Assembly: GCA_020833025.1 (NCBI GenBank) | Contig: JAJHRB010000011.1 | Span: 1-30,565 of the forward strand | DNA from: Thermoproteaceae archaeon | Lineage (GTDB): Archaea; Thermoproteota; Thermoprotei; Thermoproteales; Thermoproteaceae | Direction: 5' to 3' | DNA: 30,565 nt | Part shown: one piece after another, positions 16,122 through 28,647 of the stretch | How the letters are laid out: each line of letters starts with the position of its first letter | How positions within the stretch are numbered: position 1 is the first letter of the stretch | The notes under the pieces: model-generated | Seen by the model: the letters and a program-made list of their open reading frames with translations, nothing else | Told to the model about the DNA's origin: nothing | Databases searched by the model: none | Made by a program: the position numbers and the translations under genes

Positions 16122-16257
16122 TGGTCGGCCCGCCGGGATTTGTGGGCGGGTTTCCCCTGAACCCGGGACCGCCCGCTACAGGCCCGGGGAATTGCGCCCT
16201 GCTGTCCCCCCGGGGGCTGTCTACAGCCGGGCGCTCTGACCGCTGAGCTACGGGCCG
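16122..16257 (-). tRNA. tRNA-Tyr(GTA) with two non-canonical introns (39/40, 43 nt, 16176-16218; 56/57, 17 nt, 16142-16158)
   Basis: C1-G72 acceptor CGGCCCG/CGGGCCG-A-CCA; removing both introns gives a perfect 76-nt cloverleaf; bulge-helix motifs at both junctions; TTTTAAA about 25 nt upstream. Confidence 0.88.
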
Positions 16258-16583: not shown

Positions 16584-16608
16584 GTTTCAACCCTTCTTGA
16601 GATTCGAC
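16584..16608 (-). CRISPR. Solitary CRISPR repeat (copy 1), GTCGAATCTCAAGAAGGGTTGAAAC
   Basis: Ends in the GTTGAAAC handle and resembles Thermoproteales GAATCTCAA...GAAA(C/G) repeats; identical to 28623-28647; no spacer-repeat unit follows. Confidence 0.8.
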
Positions 16609-16693
16609 CGCTTACATGGAGCCCTTTCTTGCTCTTTTAAGCTTTTCGCTCCCGGCCTGCGCCCACGGGCCGCCGCACTGGACGCGCTATAAA
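16609..16693 (-). promoter_or_regulatory. CRISPR leader-like region with BRE/TATA
   Basis: Minus strand GAAAAGCTTAAAAG about 30 nt before repeat copy 1. Confidence 0.6.
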
Positions 16694-17275
16694 CTATTTT
16701 TCGCAGATCTTCTTGGGCGGCGGCGCCGTTAAAACCCCCACGAGCTCTACTGCCTCCACGGCCGCCACCTCAAGCCCGCCCTGCGGCGTGGCCACGGTCA
16801 CGCGCGGCGCGACGGCGAGAGCCTCGTAGAGCCTGCGGCCGCACCCCTCGTCCCCAATCTCGACGCCGAGCGCGTACACCGGGGGCGGGCTCTCGCCGAA
16901 GTAAATGCCGAGCACGCCCTCGATGTACGGCTGCGTTGTCGCGACCGCGAGGTAGTACGCGCCGCGCAGCCTCTCGAGAAGCGCGCATATCTGCTGCCGG
17001 CGTTCAAGCACCATCTCGGGCGTGACGGCTTGCCAGTCGTAGTAGTCCGGATCGCCCCCGGTTATCTTCGACGTGTTGTAGCGAATCACGAGGTAGCTCG
17101 CGGGGCACCTCGCGTCCAGCGCGTGCTCGTCAAACTCATCCTCGTGGCAGAACACCATTAAATCGCCGTTGCCGATTATATACTCAGGGGGCCCGCCCTC
17201 TAGAGGGCCGAACACCTCCCTCACTGCCTTCAGCGCGTCGCCGCAGTTCCCCCACCTCAGCAGAAGCAAGAGCAT
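16694..17275 (-). CDS. Hypothetical alpha/beta protein (193 aa), last gene of the ATPase trio
   Basis: Starts 8 bp after the upstream stop; coding-like composition; no family recognised. Confidence 0.75.
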   Translation of the reverse strand: MLLLLLRWGNCGDALKAVREVFGPLEGGPPEYIIGNGDLMVFCHEDEFDEHALDARCPASYLVIRYNTSKITGGDPDYYDWQAVTPEMVLERRQQICALLERLRGAYYLAVATTQPYIEGVLGIYFGESPPPVYALGVEIGDEGCGRRLYEALAVAPRVTVATPQGGLEVAAVEAVELVGVLTAPPPKKICEK

Positions 17276-17283
17276 GTGCTACC

Positions 17284-17697
17284 TCAGGCACATATTTTAT
17301 TCGAAGGCGCCACGAGTCTCACATTAATGTGTGAGTGTTGGAAGTACTCGCGCACTTGCTTGCCAAGCTTGGCAGTGCGTGATACGATAATGAGTACATC
17401 GGCAAGGAGGTCGTGGACCTTGTACTGTGCTAACACCGCCGATTTCGTATTCAGAAACTTCTTGACAAGCGAGTCTTTGCAGCCCCACAAGTCCCTCTCA
17501 GTGGCCTCCACGATGTACAGCCTTCTGCCGCACATGCACACATAGTCTGCAACCCTGCCGGCGGGCTTTATACTGCACGGCGTGCAACCAGTTACCTGGG
17601 GGTCTGCCGCGCAGCAGCAGTCCGCGTAGAACGGGGCACGGCACTGTTGCTGCAAGCAGCGCCGCGCGCGTAGGTCCAGGTACAGAATCGCTCTCAT
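17284..17697 (-). CDS. Cys-rich PD-(D/E)XK-like protein (137 aa)
   Basis: GRVADYV..RLYIVEAT resembles a PD-(D/E)XK core with Lys replaced by Thr; 11 Cys; ATGA overlap with the ATPase. Confidence 0.55.
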   Translation of the reverse strand: MRAILYLDLRARRCLQQQCRAPFYADCCCAADPQVTGCTPCSIKPAGRVADYVCMCGRRLYIVEATERDLWGCKDSLVKKFLNTKSAVLAQYKVHDLLADVLIIVSRTAKLGKQVREYFQHSHINVRLVAPSNKICA

Positions 17698-18542
17698 GAC
17701 ACTACCACCGCGTGATATGCCGCGAGCTCCCGCCTGAAGAGCTCGACGTCGTCCAGCCTCTCAATGCGCCTTGCCCCCCTGTCAATATAGTAAGCGGCGA
17801 GCCCGCGCCTCATGGCGAGCCGCAGCACCAGCCCGCTGTGAGTCTCGAGCACCACCGCGGCCCTCGAGCGCGCGATCGCGCTTATCAAGTCCGCGATGTA
17901 GTCCACGTGGAGGCCCGCCTCGAAGTTCTCGACGGCAACAAAGTCCCCCGTCTCAAGCGCCGTTTCGATCGCCAGTCTCCTCCTCTGGCCGTAGGAGAGA
18001 TTGGCAAGGGGTATCCACCGGCCGAGACCCGGGTCGCGCGCGTGGTCGTAGTAGCTCTCCAGGTAGAGGCGCCCGGCAATCGACGGGCACGCCACCACAA
18101 TATCGATATCCTCGGACCTGATGCCGGCGAATGCCACCTCCTGCCGCCCGAGCGCGTGCTCGTGCGCGCCGCACTCCCGCGCCGTCCCCACCTGCACTGC
18201 TCTCACTTCGTCGATATGCCACACCACCAGATCTCTGCCCCAGCCGTCGGGGCTGGTAACGCTGCTCTTCCACTCCGCGCCCCCCACTCTCGCGGTAAAG
18301 GCGTCTCCCCTGATCTCCACGTGAAATTCCCTGAACTTCACGACGGCCTCCGCCTCATCTAGCTCCCGCTTGGGCAGCACGGCACTGCTGTAATACCGCT
18401 TCGAGGAGAGCTTGCTGAGCGCGAGGAGCAAGAGGTGGATTATCGTGGACTTTCCGCCGCTGTTCGGGCCGTACAGGACGACCTTCTCGCCCTCGATGAC
18501 AGTATCCTTCAATACTTTCAACTTTTTTATTTGAAGAAACAT
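17694..18542 (-). CDS. ABC-type ATPase (AAA_21/AAA_15-like, no membrane partner)
   Basis: Walker A GPNSGGKST, signature LSYGQ, Walker B/D-loop VAVENFEAGLH, H-switch LETHS. Confidence 0.88.
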   Translation of the reverse strand: MFLQIKKLKVLKDTVIEGEKVVLYGPNSGGKSTIIHLLLLALSKLSSKRYYSSAVLPKRELDEAEAVVKFREFHVEIRGDAFTARVGGAEWKSSVTSPDGWGRDLVVWHIDEVRAVQVGTARECGAHEHALGRQEVAFAGIRSEDIDIVVACPSIAGRLYLESYYDHARDPGLGRWIPLANLSYGQRRRLAIETALETGDFVAVENFEAGLHVDYIADLISAIARSRAAVVLETHSGLVLRLAMRRGLAAYYIDRGARRIERLDDVELFRRELAAYHAVVVS

Positions 18543-18544
18543 GG

Positions 18545-18558
18545 TGACTTAGAAGTCA
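18545..18558. promoter_or_regulatory. 14-bp palindrome, putative operator
   Basis: TGACTT-AG-AAGTCA between a CTTAAG box (18567-18572, minus) and the ATPase ATG. Confidence 0.4.
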
Positions 18559-18563
18559 AGCAA

Positions 18564-19331
18564 TCACTTAAGCCTGACAACGCCATACCCCACTCGGGTC
18601 TTGGCGCCGAGGCCCTCCGCCAGGGCCTCTTTTATCAGGCCGTACACCTCCTCGGCGCACCTGACCTCCAGGCTGCGCGACGCGACAAAGAAATCGAAGG
18701 TGGCACCTGGCCTGATCACGGGGAAGACTATGGGCGTGGGCTTCGCCGCGTCCTCCCTCACGACATCGGGCTCTCTGTAGTGCGGCGTTATCACGTCAGG
18801 CTCGACGGCGACAGAAGACGTTGGCAGCGCGTCTGTGATCACTAGCGCCCCCTCCCGCCCCGCGTGGCCGAAGAGCTCTGCCGGCGGGAGGCCGCAGGCC
18901 CCCCGGCGCGTCCCCGCCTTCAGGGCGCCCTTTAGCGCGGTGGCGGGAATGTACGGCGCGTTGAATATGGGGTGCCACGCCAGGCCAATCTCGAGCGGCA
19001 TGTAGGGGTTGCGCAGATGAACGGCGAGGGGCGTCTCCGTCTCCACCGTTAGGCGGAGCACGAGGGGGAACTGACTCCTTAGTTCTCGGTCTAAAGCCTC
19101 CAGGTACCTCAGTATCAATTCCGTCTGGATGCGGAAGTCCTTCAGTCTCACCGTGACCTCCCTGCTGAACTTAGAGAGCTTGGCCTCCTCGCCTTGCTTT
19201 GTCCGCACCCACTCCAGAAGCCCCGTGACCACGCACGAGGTGACGTTGTAGCCGGGCCGTATGCAGTCCAGAGCGGCTATCCCCTCCTCGGGGGGCCGGC
19301 GTCCCCCGTCGTGCCCTCTGGGCTGCCTCAC
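18564..19331 (-). CDS. cmr6: Type III-B RAMP Cmr6
   Basis: TPLAVHL..PLEIGLAWHPIFNAPYIPATALKGAL, DALP, DVITPHY, PTPIVFPVI, GLGAKTRVGYG; GTGA overlap with cmr1. Confidence 0.92.
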   Translation of the reverse strand: MRQPRGHDGGRRPPEEGIAALDCIRPGYNVTSCVVTGLLEWVRTKQGEEAKLSKFSREVTVRLKDFRIQTELILRYLEALDRELRSQFPLVLRLTVETETPLAVHLRNPYMPLEIGLAWHPIFNAPYIPATALKGALKAGTRRGACGLPPAELFGHAGREGALVITDALPTSSVAVEPDVITPHYREPDVVREDAAKPTPIVFPVIRPGATFDFFVASRSLEVRCAEEVYGLIKEALAEGLGAKTRVGYGVVRLK

Positions 19332-20374
19332 GGCCACACCCTCTGGGGGCTCCACCTCTGTATCAGCCGGAGGAAGAGGTCGCGCGCCTCTCTCACCCTC
19401 CTCTCGTCCACCACAATGCTCTCCACGCCGCTCTCTCCCACCCACTTGAGCTTGGGAGGCCAGTCGGCGGAGAGAAACAACGAGATGTAGGTGCCACCGC
19501 CGTACTTGTGCCTCGGCGAGTGTGCCGCCGCGAAAACTGCCGAGGGCCTTCTCAGCCCCTCGCCGCGCGGGTCCATGTAGCCCGTGCCCGTGCCCCTCTG
19601 GCTTCTAGGCAGGCCGAAGAACCACGCGTTGCGGTCCATGGGGTCTGGCGCCGCGAAGCTCCCGGCGGCCAGCTCTGCCCTGCGGGACCGCAGGAAGATG
19701 TTATGTACGTCAGGGAATCCCGCCGCGACCTTGTAAACCTCAAAGAAGCCTCTCGCCGCGGCAGGGATGGGAGGGAGCCCTTGCTGCGCGGCGCCGCACT
19801 TCCCTACCCGCACGCCCTCTCTCGCAGCCTCGAGGAGCTCCCTCACCCCGCCCCTAGGGGCGTCTCCCCGCGTGTCCAGCACGTCGACGACCCCCAGCGA
19901 CTTCCTCCCGCCCTTGCCCAGGCCGGAGAGAGTGAGCGCTAGGGCAAGCGCCGCCACGGCGGGGGCGAATGCCCTGTGATTTCCCTCCACCGTCAGCCTG
20001 AACATGCCCCCAACGGCATACTCCACGTCGTGCGACAGCGCTATTAGGTCCAGCCTCTGAATGCCGCTTTTCCGCCTCCGCCTCACTACCTCAACCCTCG
20101 GCGGCCTGAGCACCTCGACCCTTATCCTGTACGCAGAGGCGGCTTTAGTCGAGCCAAGGCCCATGTCCTCGGCGACGGCCCTCGAGGTCTCTTTTGCCAG
20201 ATCCCTCACGCACCCTGCCTCGTAAAGCACGCCGGCAGCAACCGCCCTCGCCCACCACCTCCAGAGGCCCTTAACGGAGGTAGGCCTTATGTAAAAGCGA
20301 GGGTCGAGCACGCCGGGGTCGTACCAGCCCACGGAGAGGGGCGTGTTGATGGTGAGCTCGAAGACCGCCCTCAT
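19328..20374 (-). CDS. cmr1: Type III-B RAMP Cmr1
   Basis: TPLSVG..IRPTSVKGLWRWWARA, GLGKGGRKSLG, FFGLPR, RRPSAV. Confidence 0.92.
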   Translation of the reverse strand: MRAVFELTINTPLSVGWYDPGVLDPRFYIRPTSVKGLWRWWARAVAAGVLYEAGCVRDLAKETSRAVAEDMGLGSTKAASAYRIRVEVLRPPRVEVVRRRRKSGIQRLDLIALSHDVEYAVGGMFRLTVEGNHRAFAPAVAALALALTLSGLGKGGRKSLGVVDVLDTRGDAPRGGVRELLEAAREGVRVGKCGAAQQGLPPIPAAARGFFEVYKVAAGFPDVHNIFLRSRRAELAAGSFAAPDPMDRNAWFFGLPRSQRGTGTGYMDPRGEGLRRPSAVFAAAHSPRHKYGGGTYISLFLSADWPPKLKWVGESGVESIVVDERRVREARDLFLRLIQRWSPQRVWP

Positions 20375-20799
20375 TCCCCCCTCTCGAACTTCGCCTCCGC
20401 CAGCTTCTTAAGCCAGTCCACGAACTCGGCGAGCTCTAGGTCCACTAGGTCGCCGAGCCTCTCGACCTCCCTCAAGGCCTCCCCCAGGTTGCCGGCCTTG
20501 ACGCCCAGGGCTCTCAGCGCGTCGACGAGACACAGGCCGTAAATGGCGTATCCCCTCTCCTCCCTCGACAGGCTGGAGCTGCATATTGCCCTGACGCCCT
20601 CCTCGACGCTCTTGTGCGAGAATATGTCGCGCTCGCTCGACCTCGCGGCGAGGGCGGCCAGCGCGTAGGCGGTGCCCGTGTAGTAAATATCGGAGGGCAC
20701 GTGCCTGGCCCTGGCCCTGAAGGCAGACCGCGTCTCGCCGTCGCAGTGACGCTCGACCAGCTCCACGCACTCGAGCGCCTTCCTGAGCCACGACGTCAT
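20371..20799 (-). CDS. cmr5: Type III-B small subunit Cmr5
   Basis: Helical 142 aa with PSDIYYTG..YALA and WLKKLAEAKF; ATGA overlap with the cmr4 stop. Confidence 0.88.
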   Translation of the reverse strand: MTSWLRKALECVELVERHCDGETRSAFRARARHVPSDIYYTGTAYALAALAARSSERDIFSHKSVEEGVRAICSSSLSREERGYAIYGLCLVDALRALGVKAGNLGEALREVERLGDLVDLELAEFVDWLKKLAEAKFERGE

Positions 20800-21758
20800 A
20801 AGATCACCTTGACGAGACCCCTGCCTATTGTCTCCTTGCCGCCGAGCCACACCGGGCCCCTGATCATGTCGCTCACGTAGTCGCAGGGATCGCCGTCTAC
20901 TCTCACTCTCTTCCTGCACACTTGCCTCTCCTCGTCGACCTCGCCATCGGCGCATTTCTTTTCTTTGTCCATACTCACGCTCACGCTCACAACGCTCGGC
21001 CGCCGCCCGGCGCAGTAGTACCCGGACACAAAGACCGTAAATGGCGGGATGTACTCCTCGCTCCACGGGCCGGTCTCCACGGTCTTAGTATCCTGCTTTA
21101 GGCGGACTCTGTACTGCACTAGGAGGCTGCGCCGCACTATCCCCGCGATGTCGTCGTCTGATGCCACGGCGAAGCCGACCTCGCCCACCATCCTTCTTAC
21201 CTCTTGAAACGGCGGGAGGTCGAGGGCCGGCGCCCTCCCCGCGACCCTGTACTTCCTTTCGTTGATCACCGCGTGCCCGTTCACCGAGTACCTGTTGTCG
21301 GACAGGTAGACCGTGCCGCTCCCGGGCCTCGGGATCTCTGGCAGCTTGAGCGCGCAGCCCAGGGCCTCCGCGTAAAGCGCGGCGAAGCTGAGCAGCAGCG
21401 GCGACGTGACGTACAGCCACACCCCCTTCAGAGACCTCGCGGGAATGGCCACGAGCTTGACGTCGAGAAACGCCACCGGCGACGCGAACTCAGACGCCTC
21501 CTCTGGCCTCGGCCCGAATGCGGCTAGCACCCTGGCGCACTGGGCCGGGTCGCCCACGCACTTGGCGCTCCGCCCGTCGCTATGGAACAGCCCGCGCTCC
21601 GCCTTGGCTCTCAGGGCGCCCTTGAGCGACGAGGCCCATATCGCCGGGAGCCCGAACTCGTCCCGCTGGACTGGCAGGTCCACATGCGCCGCCTCGCCGC
21701 GGCCCACGCCGGGGTGGAGGGCTGTCAAGGCCACCAGCCAGAACAGCTTACCCCCCAT
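20796..21758 (-). CDS. cmr4: Type III-B backbone RNase Cmr4
   Basis: TALHPGVG..VDLPVQRD (catalytic Asp), WASSLKGALR, WSEEYIP, LGGKETIGRGL. Confidence 0.95.
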   Translation of the reverse strand: MGGKLFWLVALTALHPGVGRGEAAHVDLPVQRDEFGLPAIWASSLKGALRAKAERGLFHSDGRSAKCVGDPAQCARVLAAFGPRPEEASEFASPVAFLDVKLVAIPARSLKGVWLYVTSPLLLSFAALYAEALGCALKLPEIPRPGSGTVYLSDNRYSVNGHAVINERKYRVAGRAPALDLPPFQEVRRMVGEVGFAVASDDDIAGIVRRSLLVQYRVRLKQDTKTVETGPWSEEYIPPFTVFVSGYYCAGRRPSVVSVSVSMDKEKKCADGEVDEERQVCRKRVRVDGDPCDYVSDMIRGPVWLGGKETIGRGLVKVIL

Positions 21759-21790: not shown

Positions 21791-24640
21791 GTGGACTGGT
21801 TCGCCAAGGCGTACGCCCTCCTTCACGATCCGCCTCACAAGGCCCTCTGGTTTGAGGACGAGAAGTACAGGGTCTTTGACAAGGAGAGCCACGAGGGCGA
21901 GGCGCGCAAGATGCTCGACGAAATGCTCAGGGGAACGCCTCTCGGCGGAGGGGCCCCCTCTAGGGACGTCACGATGAGGGTGAAGACGGCGGACAGGATT
22001 GCTGCGTCGTTTGACAGGTGGGCCCTGCCGGAGCCCGCCGGCGGCTACTGGGCGGTGGCAGAGGCTCTGTACAACCCCTTCAACTTACAGTACTCAATGC
22101 GGATAGAGAGGCCAGATCCAAAGGCCTTCAGGAGCGCGCTGGAGGATTACATCCGCCGAGCGAATGAAATCCTCAGGGCCGCGCGGAACGACAGAGAGAC
22201 TTACGTACTGCTCTACGCCGTCGCCGAGCCGCTCTGGATACTGAAGGGCCTGCCGGCCCTCCCGGCGGACACCAGAGCGCCGACCCACACGGTCTTCGAC
22301 CACCTGTACGCGACGGCATCCATGATGAACTGGGTGGACGGCGGGGGCAGCCTCAGCCCGAGGGGCTGTCTGCTCGAGATTGACGTCCCCGGCATTCAGA
22401 GGATTATCGGCTCGGCGAGAAAGGCGGGGGACTACCGCGCGGGGAGTCTCCTCGTGTCGCTGGCTGTGTGGCTGACGGCGTGGCAGTACATGCGGAAGTA
22501 CGGTCCCGACGTACTCCTCTCCCCCACGCCCCGCTTCAACCCCCTCTTCTACTTCCAGCTGGCCAGAGAGATCAAAGGGGGAGAAATTGAGGGCGCCGGC
22601 AAGCGCGCGCCCGGCGAGAGGGCCCTGGAGCTCTACGCCGAGCTCGTCGTCAAGGCGCTCGGCCTCAAGGCGCTGGGGGAGGAAGGAAGGGAGGGCGGGC
22701 CTGAGAGGCTAATCGCCGAGTACTTCATCGAGAGGGCTTCCGTGATACCGGGCACGGCGTATCTAGCGCTGCCCGACTGCGCGGAGGCCGAGAGAGCGCC
22801 GGAGTACTTCGAGGCGGCGCTCTCCGCCATAAAAGATGCGGCGTGCGGCTCCGAGCGCGAGGACCTGCCCCTCCCCGTCAGGCCCGCCGCCGTGCGGGAC
22901 AACCACGTGGCCAGGCTGGCGAGGAGGGTCCTCGAGAGAACCCCCGCGCTCTACCTCCCGCTCAGGCACAGGTGTGTGTCCGTCGAGGATGCGCTGCGCG
23001 AGGCCGAGAGGGTCGCCAGAGAGCTCGCGCCGCCCGACCACCTCCTGAGGGCTCTCGGGGGAGAGCGCGGCCTGGCGGAGCGCCTTCTGTTCTACGCTGC
23101 GTGGAGGCTGCTGCACAGAAAGGTCGCGGCGCCGAGGGCGCCCTCGTGGTTCAGCGAGGGCGGGAGGCCCAACTTCGTCAAGCTCTACGAGGGGCCGTGG
23201 ATTCACAGCACGCTGGACCCAGACCAGCCGGCGTCGCTGAGACTCGGCGGCGTGGTTAGAGAGAGGAGGCTGGACTACGACGAGGAGACGTGGAGCGTGC
23301 TCAGCCGCGAGCTGGGAGCGGGGGAGGGCGCGGAGAAGTTGAGGGAGGAGCTGAAGAAGGTCTTCAAGCCGAAGGAGGCGCTCGGCCCGGTAGACGTGCT
23401 CAAGCGGGCGCTCTACTACGCCGTGGCCGGGGGAGGAATACCGTCGGTGCAGGAGACGGCTCTGAGGTGGTACTATAACAGGGGATGGGCGGAGGCCTGC
23501 GACGACAGCGTCAGGAGAGGCATTGAAGAGATCGTCGGAGGGGGCGACGCCGAGGAGATCTTCGGCCAGCCGCCGGCGCCGGATGCCGTCTTGCGGCAGC
23601 GCTGCAAGCGCAAGGAGACGGACAAGCCGCCGATGTCGTTCACGTACGCCATAGTCAGAGCCGACGGGGACTACGTGGGGAGGCTCGCGAGGGGCTGCGT
23701 GAGGGGCCGCGCCGGCGGCGCGGTCGAGCAGGCGCTCGAGGACGTGCTGCCCAGAGAGGCCAGGGGCGACGCGGAGAGGTGGAGGGAGGACGGGAGGCTC
23801 GTCATCGAGGCGTTCAAGCTCGTCCAGAAGCTCCGGGGCAAGGAGTGCGAGGACGCCACGGGGGAGTTCCTCAAGGAGTTCCCCGACGTGATGTTCGTCG
23901 TCCCGTCGCCGTCTTACTACGCCGCGCTCTCCGCCTCGCTCATGATCACCGCGCTCAAGGACGCGAAGGCAGTCATCGAGCGCGACGGCGATGTCGTGTT
24001 TGCCGGCGGCGACGACCTGCTCGCCTTTGCGGCGAGGCCTGCGGCGCTGGAGATAGTCGAGGAGACCAGGAGGGCTTATCACGGCGACGGCGGCTTTCAC
24101 AGGCTGACGGACAGCTACGCGGTGCCGGCCCCCGCGGCCTACGGCAGGAGCTACTCGGTGAGACTCACGCACTCGATCACGGACTTCATGGCCATCGAGG
24201 TCGACGAGGCGAGCAGGCTGCTGGAGGCCGCCAAGAGTGCCGTGAGGGGCAAGGACGCGCTAGTGATATCCGCCTCGACGGGGCACGCGGGCGTCGTGAG
24301 GATGTTGGACGTGGGCGAGGTGGAGAGAGTCGTGAAGGCCTACCTTGCCGGCGACCTCTCCCGAAACCTCCCCCACGACATGGAGGCGGTTTACACGCCC
24401 GGCGCGCCGGTGGGAGGCAGCGACGCGAGGAGGGCTGAGGAGATCCTCCTGGCGTACACTGTCAGGAGGAACGTCCGCAGGGGCAGCAAGGCAGGGGACG
24501 GGCTCGTTGAGGCGCTAGTAAGGCTCCACGGCGCCATGTGGGATTACTTTAGGCTGGAGGGCGCGCGAGACAGGCTGGGGCTGGCGGGCCCCTGGCACAA
24601 TATGGTCGAGCTGCTGAAGGCGCTCAGGGAGTTCCTATGA
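21791..24640 (+). CDS. cmr2: Cas10/Cmr2 with HD domain and intact GGDD palm
   Basis: LLHDPPHKAL..ADRIAASFDR, PADTRAP.HTVFDHL, ADGD..G, FAGGDDLLAF. Confidence 0.96.
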   Translation: MDWFAKAYALLHDPPHKALWFEDEKYRVFDKESHEGEARKMLDEMLRGTPLGGGAPSRDVTMRVKTADRIAASFDRWALPEPAGGYWAVAEALYNPFNLQYSMRIERPDPKAFRSALEDYIRRANEILRAARNDRETYVLLYAVAEPLWILKGLPALPADTRAPTHTVFDHLYATASMMNWVDGGGSLSPRGCLLEIDVPGIQRIIGSARKAGDYRAGSLLVSLAVWLTAWQYMRKYGPDVLLSPTPRFNPLFYFQLAREIKGGEIEGAGKRAPGERALELYAELVVKALGLKALGEEGREGGPERLIAEYFIERASVIPGTAYLALPDCAEAERAPEYFEAALSAIKDAACGSEREDLPLPVRPAAVRDNHVARLARRVLERTPALYLPLRHRCVSVEDALREAERVARELAPPDHLLRALGGERGLAERLLFYAAWRLLHRKVAAPRAPSWFSEGGRPNFVKLYEGPWIHSTLDPDQPASLRLGGVVRERRLDYDEETWSVLSRELGAGEGAEKLREELKKVFKPKEALGPVDVLKRALYYAVAGGGIPSVQETALRWYYNRGWAEACDDSVRRGIEEIVGGGDAEEIFGQPPAPDAVLRQRCKRKETDKPPMSFTYAIVRADGDYVGRLARGCVRGRAGGAVEQALEDVLPREARGDAERWREDGRLVIEAFKLVQKLRGKECEDATGEFLKEFPDVMFVVPSPSYYAALSASLMITALKDAKAVIERDGDVVFAGGDDLLAFAARPAALEIVEETRRAYHGDGGFHRLTDSYAVPAPAAYGRSYSVRLTHSITDFMAIEVDEASRLLEAAKSAVRGKDALVISASTGHAGVVRMLDVGEVERVVKAYLAGDLSRNLPHDMEAVYTPGAPVGGSDARRAEEILLAYTVRRNVRRGSKAGDGLVEALVRLHGAMWDYFRLEGARDRLGLAGPWHNMVELLKALREFL

Positions 24641-25542
24641 TCGAGCTGAGGATAACCCCCATCGGCCCCGCGCGCTTCGGCATCAGGCATCTGTCAACGC
24701 CGGCCGTCGCCAGCAGGGATGACGTCTGGATCGCCCCGCCGCCCTCCACCGTGCTGGGAGCCCTCGGCGCGCTTCTCGGCGCGAGGGTGGACTGCGGGAG
24801 GTGCGGCAGCGGGGACTTCGAGTGCCGGGCGGCGGCGGCCGAGAGGTCGCTGCTCGAGCTGGCGGACCAGCTCGGCGTGCGCAAGATGTGGGGGCCGCTC
24901 GTCAGGGCGGGGGGCAGGATCGGCGTTCCCGCCCTCGACTTCGTGCTCTACCCGGACAGCATGACCGCGGAGAGGGTGGAAAAGGTGTCGAGAGTCGGCC
25001 TGGCGCTGACGGAGAACAAAACGGCGGCGCCGGGCTACCTCTACCGCGCCACGTTCCTGCGCGCAAGAGGCCTCACCTACATCTACTACATCGACGGCGA
25101 TCTCGGGCCCTTCAGGCCGAGGGTTGTCAGGCTGGGGGGCGAGGGGAGGGCGGCACTGGTCGAGGCGGTAGAAGTCAAGGAGAGGCCGCCGGGAGTGATG
25201 CCAGAGGCTGTGAGCGGGCATGCCGTCCTCATAACGCCCCTCCTCATGCCAGACGGCGAGCTCCCGCGGTGCGTGAAGCCCCTGGGAGCGTACGAGCTGA
25301 AGCCGGCTGAGGAAGGGGGGAGGGCCCCTGCGGTCAGGCTGGAAAGGAAGGTCAGGGTAGTCCAGTGGGGCCTTGGCTTCAGCGAGGCGTGCCGCGAGAG
25401 GAGGCCAATATACCCAGCCCTGCCTCCAGGCACGGCGGTAGAGGCCGGCGACTGCCCCGCCGCGGTCGGCTACATGGCCCGGCTCGGCTACGGCGCGCTG
25501 TACCCCATGAGGCGAGCGCTCGCGCCTGCAGAGCCGCCGTGA
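24637..25542 (+). CDS. cmr3: Type III-B RAMP Cmr3
   Basis: PPPSTVLGAL, RVGLAL..K.A..GYLY, VVRLGGEGR, LITP, ALPPGT, LGYG; ATGA overlap with cmr2. Confidence 0.92.
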   Translation: MIELRITPIGPARFGIRHLSTPAVASRDDVWIAPPPSTVLGALGALLGARVDCGRCGSGDFECRAAAAERSLLELADQLGVRKMWGPLVRAGGRIGVPALDFVLYPDSMTAERVEKVSRVGLALTENKTAAPGYLYRATFLRARGLTYIYYIDGDLGPFRPRVVRLGGEGRAALVEAVEVKERPPGVMPEAVSGHAVLITPLLMPDGELPRCVKPLGAYELKPAEEGGRAPAVRLERKVRVVQWGLGFSEACRERRPIYPALPPGTAVEAGDCPAAVGYMARLGYGALYPMRRALAPAEPP

Positions 25543-28593: not shown

Positions 28594-28647
28594 GTGATGA
28601 CTCGACTCGCAGCAGAGCCGTAGTTTCAACCCTTCTTGAGATTCGAC
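28594..28647 (+). ncRNA. C/D-box sRNA-like unit B whose 3' half is the antisense CRISPR repeat
   Basis: CCTTAAA promoter at 28562; C GTGATGA - 12 nt CTCGACTCGCAG - D' CAGA - 6 nt - anti-repeat. Confidence 0.45.
28623..28647 (-). CRISPR. Solitary CRISPR repeat (copy 2)
   Basis: 25/25 identical to 16584-16608, same orientation; no leader or spacer array around it. Confidence 0.8.

Follow-up and report, generated by a model that had tools for sequence, protein, structure and literature searches.

The closest described relatives of the locus studied here are Cas_RecF and RFas (RecF-associated protein), two families defined by Vestergaard et al (2014; PMC3973734, Table 5), in which RFas comprises diverse small proteins of about 170 amino acids (aa). 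Shah et al (2018; PMC6546367) assigned Cas_RecF to cluster 17, for which VMUT_1481 and P186_0874 are references, and cas_RFas to clusters 83, 84, 108 and 211, gave Pcal_0278 and Pars_1112 as examples, and placed clusters 83 and 108 in the top five by strength of association with type III CRISPR systems. These two papers, in which P186_0873/4 are also among the named example genes, liken the Cas_RecF ATPase to RecF and SMC, report no good database matches for the small RFas partners, and name the pair without giving it a fold or a function. A full-text literature search for the module names and locus tags found no mention outside them, and family members are publicly annotated as "hypothetical protein" or "AAA family ATPase". 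Here, we describe three consecutive genes, referred to as the trio, in a 30,565-nucleotide (nt) stretch of DNA from a Thermoproteaceae archaeon, referred to as the window (positions 1-30,565 of contig JAJHRB010000011.1 in GCA_020833025.1, a draft genome of 126 contigs). The trio encodes a soluble ATP-binding cassette (ABC) ATPase, a Cys-rich protein of 137 aa and a protein of 193 aa, in that order (Table 1), and very probably represents the Cas_RecF-RFas module that accompanies crenarchaeal type III systems as an accessory, in a three-gene form whose middle protein is predicted to have a PD-(D/E)xK nuclease fold.

The third protein provides the name. It matches the PADLOC family cas_RFas (PDLC01095) at E 2.6e-16 over residues 1-120, while Pfam and NCBIfam give no match for it, and its family as found in our searches has 16 members, including P. 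arsenaticum ABP50690.1, P. oguniense Pogu_1163 and P. calidifontis ABO08714.1. The P. arsenaticum member (P0007) matches the profile of the window RFas family at E 3.8e-63 and is 35% identical to the window protein over half its length. We infer that it is Pars_1112 from its position, as the P. arsenaticum table of Bernick et al (2012; PMC3396285) places the gene between CRISPR2 and Pars_1114, which is cmr6. Assignment of the ATPase to Cas_RecF rests on its AAA_21 match together with its adjacency to RFas and to a type III cassette; the cmr6-adjacent ATPase of another genome (G024) matches our ATPase family profile at E 5.8e-49. Vestergaard et al (2014) also have a sister pair, a Cas ABC ATPase with sRRM, to which the ATPase might belong instead.

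The locus thus shares with the described families a RecF/SMC-like ABC ATPase and small proteins of the ~170-aa class that lack database matches, beside a type III cassette of the Thermoproteales, as well as a cas_RFas match and a P. arsenaticum relative at the position of Pars_1112. The initial annotation of the window had raised the possibility of an undescribed defence system; with families named in 2014 and 2018, this part of it has to be given up. Cas_RecF-RFas is already named and has never been characterised. What is new is the architecture: the earlier papers speak of a pair or of "multiple divergent copies" of RFas, whereas we find a fixed order of three genes with a Cys-rich middle gene of predicted PD-(D/E)xK fold, and a tie to cmr6 that can be put in numbers.

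Conservation of the trio and its tie to cmr6

How closely does the module follow the type III-B cassette? We surveyed 120 genomes of the class with a single ATPase query and then with a profile of 16 ATPase sequences; the counts are our own tally of the result tables. Profiles were needed, as word-index homology searches with the single proteins gave three matches each. The survey yielded 25 family-level ATPase genes, 22 of which were placed by locus. Seventeen of the 25 share the strand of cmr6 and lie downstream of it at a distance of no more than 850 bp; most of these are separated from it by a few tens of nucleotides. Four others lie elsewhere inside a cmr cassette. One was found 2 kb from a csm (type III-A) cassette, in a Pyrobaculum genome that has no cmr6 (G034). 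No locus among the 22 examined is away from a type III cassette.

The order of ATPase, Cys-rich protein and RFas-like protein is kept in 18 of the 19 loci across the Thermoproteales in which it could be assessed. The first partner is Cys-rich, 104-203 aa long, and in most loci carries a P-D...E-C-K-type motif; the second, of about 170-220 aa, starts in most loci with a hydrophobic, M-L-L-like strand. Profile-profile alignment with hhalign between the window lineage and the others relates the Cys-rich proteins at E 1.2e-4 (98 columns, with the Cys and D/E motifs in register) and the RFas proteins at E 4.5e-4, a modest cross-lineage homology that is consistent with the shared gene positions. In Pyrobaculum sp. 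WP30 the trio also follows cmr6, and its products are, in gene order, 64%, 38% and 53% identical to those of the window. The same placement is seen in P. oguniense, in P. arsenaticum and in P. calidifontis, where the trio is Pcal_1288-1290 and its nuclease is of the Lys type. Homologues across the order are therefore linked to each other and to cas genes, in agreement with the earlier view of the trio as a unit that belongs to type III-B and not to a transporter.

Within the order, cmr6 is present in 34 of 62 genomes and is accompanied by the module in 18 of these 34. The largest sister family of the class (f15) gave no match to the ATPase profile at E<=1e-10 in any of its 23 genomes, so these queries did not recover the type III-A-linked members that the literature reports from Sulfolobales.

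Several copies depart from the common arrangement. In P. arsenaticum the Cys-rich gene is frameshifted into two pieces (L016, 10039-10501), and in a further genome the ATPase is split into two open reading frames (ORFs; G023, L092, 4483-5395), so that both copies show signs of decay. P. oguniense carries a second, tandem ATPase followed by an 89-aa N-terminal fragment of RFas that abuts the trailer end of a CRISPR array (L015, 10685-12081), as if a duplicated module had been cut short by the array. Beside the csm cassette of G034, two different RecF/AAA_21-like ATPases lie 1 kb apart (L049, 6815-9860), and all that follows the family ATPase there is an 80-aa piece of the Cys-rich partner. The sole ATPase-alone locus of the 19 is in G047, where the ATPase follows cmr6 and neither a Cys-rich nor an RFas-like ORF comes next (L047, 7944-8759).

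Predicted structures and motifs of the three proteins

The initial annotation described the middle protein as nuclease-like, with 11 Cys residues and a D...E-x-T core; we find the same 11 Cys, with the core at D51 and E64-A-T66. Neither Pfam, NCBIfam nor PADLOC matches this protein, and an exhaustive profile search among 1.84 billion entries returned 13 representatives of its family at E<=0.001 and no distant named relative. A profile search of PDB sequences gave designed TIM barrels only, which we judged spurious. Its AlphaFold2 model, calculated from a 14-sequence alignment, has a predicted local distance difference test score (pLDDT) of 95.5 and a predicted template modelling score of 0.90, and the top Foldseek matches of this model are NucS/EndoMS, AF1548, Nt.BspD6I and Ecl18kI (prob up to 0.95, E 0.014). 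Structural comparison by VIA-align with 48,161 representative chains places AF1548 at Z 6.5, with a root-mean-square deviation (rmsd) of 3.0 Å over 95 residues, and further gives NucS (Z 6.3), XisH (5.9-6.1), LlaBIII (5.5), Can2 (5.2) and FokI (5.0). After re-ranking, PD-(D/E)xK enzymes make up about 47 of the first 50 matches; Cas4 and AddAB are also among the fold matches, at Z 3.6-4.4. By its model, then, the middle protein has a PD-(D/E)xK nuclease fold, which gives substance to the term nuclease-like.

The likeness to NucS/EndoMS and AF1548, which rank highest in the structural comparison (Z 6.3-6.5, rmsd about 3 Å over 93-95 residues), does not extend to sequence, where no similarity is found. 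Both lack the Cys-rich N-terminal subdomain of the 137-aa protein, and NucS has a separate DNA-binding N-domain. Can1, Can2/Card1 and Cdn1 belong to the same class of nuclease folds (Z about 4.5-5.2) and are likewise encoded with type III systems; these enzymes are fused to CARF domains and activated by cyclic oligoadenylate, whereas no CARF domain was detected in the 137-aa protein, whose partner is an ATPase.

In the model, D51 immediately precedes strand 52-56 and E64 lies on the adjacent strand 59-65, which together form the hairpin that bears the catalytic D and the (D/E)xK motif in this superfamily, and K80 is located in the helix following the E64-x-T66 strand. Across the 14 aligned sequences D51 is nearly invariant, and E64 and K80 are invariant. 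The position of the motif Lys is variable: it is T66 in the window, Thr in 7 of 14 relatives (E-x-T-x-R) and Lys in 5 of 14, and a second set of homologues, group B, mostly reads E-C-K here. The approximately 50 N-terminal residues form a beta-rich Cys cluster in which C14, C19, C27-29, C38 and C41 are conserved, and the C-terminal half forms the nuclease core, to which group-B homologues add a C-terminal C-x2-C-x2-C. By analogy with Cas4 and AddB the cluster could bind zinc or an iron-sulfur (Fe-S) centre, or it could form intracellular disulfides, which are known in Pyrobaculum. Public gene calling on the contig starts the protein at Met55 and yields an 83-aa version (P0002) that drops the Cys-rich N-terminal half; conservation of this half in the homologues supports the long form of 137 aa.

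The ATPase passes the Pfam AAA_21 model with 48.6 bits against a cut-off of 27 (E 1.6e-12). Walker A (GPNSGGKS, residues 25-32), the signature (LSYGQRR, about 182-188) and the H-loop (ETHS, with E233-T-H235) are all canonical, and across the alignment of 16 homologues GPNxxGK(S/T) and E-(T/S)-H do not vary, while LSYGQRR hardly does. The earlier description of an ATPase with all four motifs holds for these three and fails for Walker B, which reads VAVENFE (about 201-208), that is hhhhE-N-x-E and not hhhhD-E. This E-x-x-E deviation is kept in 16 of 16 aligned homologues, in which the residue following the first acidic one is N, V, G, D, A, T or P. Given how ABC ATPases generally work, the motif suggests that the Cas_RecF ATPase hydrolyses ATP slowly and may serve as a switch or clamp. 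No permease gene is present within the cassette, as the initial annotation had it. The orthologous ATPase of WP30 (L014, 10681-11574) is publicly labelled "ABC-type cobalt transport system ATPase" or "EcfA2", with similar labels in some metagenome records; since the orthologue follows cmr6 and a permease is absent, the cobalt/ECF label is probably a mis-annotation.

A soluble ATPase beside a small nuclease also recalls free-standing defence systems such as PARIS (the ABC ATPase AriA with the Toprim protein AriB) and Septu (PtuA with the HNH protein PtuB), which likewise place a coiled-coil-free ATPase of AAA_21/AAA_15 type next to a small nuclease. The trio might thus be a system of the PARIS, Septu or AbiL kind that has its own trigger and shares a defence island with Cmr without a functional tie. 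Its nearest profile matches are indeed defence ATPases, with mad3, NsnB, AriA, AbiLi and GajA as the best, partial PADLOC matches and AriA structures among the few PDB sequence matches, and the association with cmr6 has gaps: one module stands beside a type III-A cassette, some are inverted or 2-8 kb from cmr6, and about half of the cmr6-bearing genomes carry the module. The PADLOC matches, however, span just 60-70 residues, either around Walker A or along the part with the signature and Walker B. The Toprim/DUF4435 and HNH partner genes are absent, and PADLOC finds none of the partners of PARIS, Septu, Gabija and AbiL (AriB Toprim-DUF4435, PtuB HNH, the GajB helicase, AbiLii) in the two proteins encoded with the ATPase. 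The trio further differs from PARIS and Septu in having a PD-(D/E)xK nuclease fold instead of Toprim or HNH, a third protein, an embedding in the cmr operon and a non-canonical Walker B. Moreover, 17 of 25 ATPase genes directly follow cmr6 on the same strand even where the ATPase has diverged to about 25% identity, an operon-level conservation that would not be expected from co-location in an island alone, and none of the 22 loci is away from a type III cassette. We therefore consider a free-standing system unlikely and retain the reading of the trio as a type III accessory.

Lamassu/DdmABC systems combine an SMC-like ATPase, LmuB, with an effector, LmuA, often a Cap4-type PD-(D/E)xK nuclease, and a small LmuC. 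An ABC-type ATPase, a PD-(D/E)xK nuclease and a small third subunit are thus common to Lamassu and the trio, a likeness that we take to be architectural only. The trio ATPase is 282 aa long, has no coiled coil and matches LmuB weakly and N-terminally (E 0.0027 in PADLOC), and its partners have no PADLOC match to Lamassu.

The motif changes could also mean that the trio in this genome is a non-catalytic regulator or a decaying remnant, in which the nuclease has lost its Lys and the ATPase its catalytic Glu, and in which the proteins merely bind or sense. T66 at the motif Lys position and a Walker B that reads E-N fit this idea, as do the frameshifted middle gene of P. arsenaticum, the split ATPase of G023 and the truncated second copy of P. 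oguniense. Yet all three ORFs of the window are intact, the Thr-type variant of the nuclease retains D51, E64 and K80 together with a conserved Arg two residues past T66 in several species, and the E-x-x-E Walker B is a trait of the whole family and not private to this genome. A non-catalytic or decaying copy thus appears very unlikely to us, compared with a Cas_RecF-RFas module that is intact.

AlphaFold2 models the RFas protein as a two-layer alpha/beta sandwich (pLDDT 77.7). Its hydrophobic N-terminus forms a buried first strand, which is followed by a conserved Gly/Cys loop, and the protein further has an invariant C43 and a T113-x-x-P116 motif. The loop following strand 1 has the family consensus K-G-x-C-G-G-G-C-G and reads W-G-N-C-G-D in the window copy. 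Shah et al (2018) interpreted the hydrophobic N-terminus in cluster 108 as a membrane signal, whereas in the model of the window protein it would be a buried strand of a soluble sandwich. The model has no clear fold match: Foldseek gives a best E of 0.28 against PDB and of 0.12 against BFVD, a VIA-wide search reaches Z 5.7 with CdiI, KA1, ACT and PII-like domains, which are generic ferredoxin-like sandwiches, and the top ESM Atlas score of 0.79 is at chance level. The initial annotation had speculated on a degenerate P-loop, hearing echoes of Walker A and B in LLLLLRWGNCG and MVFCHEDEFD. We find no support for this idea, as the family has no conserved GK[ST] in its first-loop consensus and the best fold matches of the sandwich are not P-loop NTPases. 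A relation of the 137-aa and 193-aa proteins as paralogues was likewise rejected (hhalign E 0.16).

No CARF domain was recognised in the trio by the initial annotation, and we detect none either: Pfam and NCBIfam give no CARF match in any of the three proteins, in scans that did detect the csx1 and ring-nuclease genes of the same window, and no CARF chain is among the fold matches listed for the 193-aa model, an absence that does not by itself exclude a family.

The surrounding locus

The three minus-strand ORFs lie where the initial annotation had placed them, and the junctions, read directly in the DNA, are as it described: the TGA stop of cmr6 is followed after 21 nt by the ATG of the ATPase, the ATPase stop overlaps the start of the 137-aa gene as ATGA, and the stop of the latter is followed after 8 nt by the ATG of the 193-aa gene. 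An inverted repeat, TGACTT-CT-AAGTCA, lies in the 21 nt that separate cmr6 from the ATPase (18543-18563). The last core gene of the cmr4-5-1-6 operon is cmr6, with the trio immediately downstream in the same direction. The cmr6 call scores 97.9 bits against a TIGR01898 cut-off of 51.1, and the real start of the gene is probably further downstream than that of the longest ORF. The set of cmr1, cmr5 and cmr4 (19328..21758) matches TIGR01894, TIGR01881 and TIGR02580, and the divergent pair of cas10/cmr2 and cmr3 (21791..25542) matches TIGR02577 and TIGR01888. Cas10 of the window retains, as read in its translation, both the HD motif LLHDPPHK and GGDD. Further along the window lie csx1, a ring-nuclease-like gene, cas6 and cas3''.

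Table 1. Features of the trio and the adjoining type III-B cassette, in window coordinates
Feature	Position	Strand	Basis
CRISPR leader-like stretch and single spacerless repeat	16584..16693	-	Repeat search, shared leader motif
RFas (RecF-associated) protein, 193 aa	16694..17275	-	PADLOC PDLC01095 cas_RFas
Cys-rich protein of predicted PD-(D/E)xK fold, 137 aa	17284..17697	-	Predicted structure and fold matches
Cas_RecF-type soluble ABC ATPase, 282 aa, AAA_21	17694..18542	-	Pfam AAA_21
cmr6, longest ORF	18564..19445	-	TIGR01898, E 8.1e-28
cmr1	19328-20374	-	NCBIfam match
cmr5, longest ORF	20371-21066	-	NCBIfam match
cmr4	20796-21758	-	NCBIfam match
cas10/cmr2, divergent from the trio	21791-24640	+	NCBIfam
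cmr3, after cas10/cmr2	24637-25542	+	NCBIfam

On its other side the trio borders on CRISPR sequence. One copy of the genome's CRISPR repeat is found at 16584-16608, 85 nt beyond the last stop of the trio, with its CRISPR RNA sense on the minus strand, which is the direction of the trio. Between stop and repeat lies a motif of 16-17 nt (about 16634-16650), which four further repeat-bearing loci of the genome also have next to their repeats; at the one locus checked for spacing (C103) it lies about 29 nt past the last repeat, compared with 26 nt in the window. No CRISPR array is present within the window, including beside this repeat, and true arrays with the same repeat are located on other contigs of the draft genome. 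The arrangement at 16584-16650 looks like a leader with an empty single-repeat array, and the solitary repeat may be an array that collapsed in the assembly of the draft. The earlier statement that the trio ends at a CRISPR leader is thus right about the leader motif and incomplete about what follows, as the leader runs into a single repeat and not into an array. A second, identical, solitary and spacerless repeat is found at 28623-28647.

Neighbouring arrays are leader-proximal to the module in the window and in P. calidifontis, and trailer-proximal in P. oguniense and G020, and we rejected a fixed position of the module next to a CRISPR leader because of this difference in orientation between species. 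The same observation bears on the possibility that the trio serves DNA-end processing or repair linked to CRISPR, in Cas4-like trimming of prespacers or at ends produced by interference, in the manner of the HerA-NurA and SbcCD pairs that likewise occur next to archaeal type III loci. CRISPR arrays or a leader often come right after the module, the ATPase was likened to RecF/SMC when first described (PMC3973734, PMC6546367), and a Cys-rich PD-(D/E)xK protein is reminiscent of the Fe-S-bearing Cas4 and AddB, the more so with the C-x2-C-x2-C of group B and with Cas4 and AddAB among the fold matches. The module, however, is tied to cmr6 and not to cas1, cas2 or cas4, the orientation of the neighbouring array is inconsistent, and the best fold matches are NucS and AF1548, not Cas4. 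We give a role in DNA-end processing little probability beside one as an accessory of Cmr.

A tRNA-like sequence lies still further out, between a macro-domain gene and the cas locus (16179-16257, minus strand). It scores 25.2 bits, under the Rfam gathering score of 29, and ARAGORN makes no call; its acceptor, D and anticodon stems are good, but 9 nt are inserted into the anticodon loop and the T arm is weak, so that it could be an intron-bearing or decayed tRNA gene.

A possible role beside Cmr

What might the module do? We regard it as fairly probable that, as a whole, the trio is a Cas_RecF-RFas copy that acts as an ATP-controlled nuclease complex co-expressed with Cmr. The proteins of the trio would be made together with the Cmr backbone subunits and would assemble into such a complex. 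A dimer of the ABC ATPase would bind ATP, probably hydrolyse it slowly, and work as a clamp or switch in the manner of RecF, Rad50, PtuA or AriA; it would hold or release the small Cys-rich nuclease, itself stabilised by metal or disulfides. The RFas sandwich protein might have a regulatory role or be an adaptor, possibly one that faces Cmr. With this complex the system would gain a means of degrading nucleic acids that may be independent of cyclic oligoadenylate, because no CARF domain is detected. We put the mechanistic core of this proposal, an ATP-gated nuclease with coupled subunits, at an even chance or slightly below. That the trio docks physically on Cmr, for instance through Cmr6 and RFas, and provides an ATP-dependent DNA- or RNA-degrading arm in a subset of archaeal type III-B systems is a more speculative extension, which we regard as rather doubtful.

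Several observations weigh against this explanation. The Z-scores of the fold matches are moderate (at most 6.5), which makes the nuclease a fold assignment rather than a proof of activity. Where ExK nucleases have Lys, the nuclease of the window has Thr, and its product could therefore be inactive or could rely on K80 or R68 as a substitute. ATP hydrolysis is uncertain, since Walker B lacks the canonical D-E pair. The module accompanies cmr6 in about half of the genomes that have it (18 of 34), so that it is a facultative accessory, and in a few loci (L051, L052, L057) it is inverted or separated from cmr6. Finally, with HD and GGDD kept in Cas10, and with csx1 and a ring nuclease also encoded, the system lacks no activity that an additional nuclease would have to supply. 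Specifically, we rejected a role of the trio as substitute for a lost HD nuclease of Cas10, as the window Cas10 and most trio-linked Cas10s keep LLHDPPxK and GGDD.

In conclusion, research on type III systems has centred on effectors driven by cyclic oligoadenylate and SAM-AMP, and Cas_RecF-RFas, among the archaeal accessory sets most strongly associated with type III, is treated in the library searched only by the two papers that named it. Annotation has its share of problems here, with the middle gene cut to 83 aa in public calls and the orthologous ATPase labelled as a cobalt/ECF transporter. With the predicted nuclease fold and the three-gene order, what was an unknown accessory becomes a hypothesis open to bench tests, through K31 of the ATPase, D51 and E64 of the nuclease, and Cmr6. 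The module thereby offers a way into a type III output that is unexplored and bears no sign of cyclic oligoadenylate dependence, and if the trio were indeed docked on Cmr, it would constitute a third output route beside the HD domain of Cas10 and the CARF effectors.

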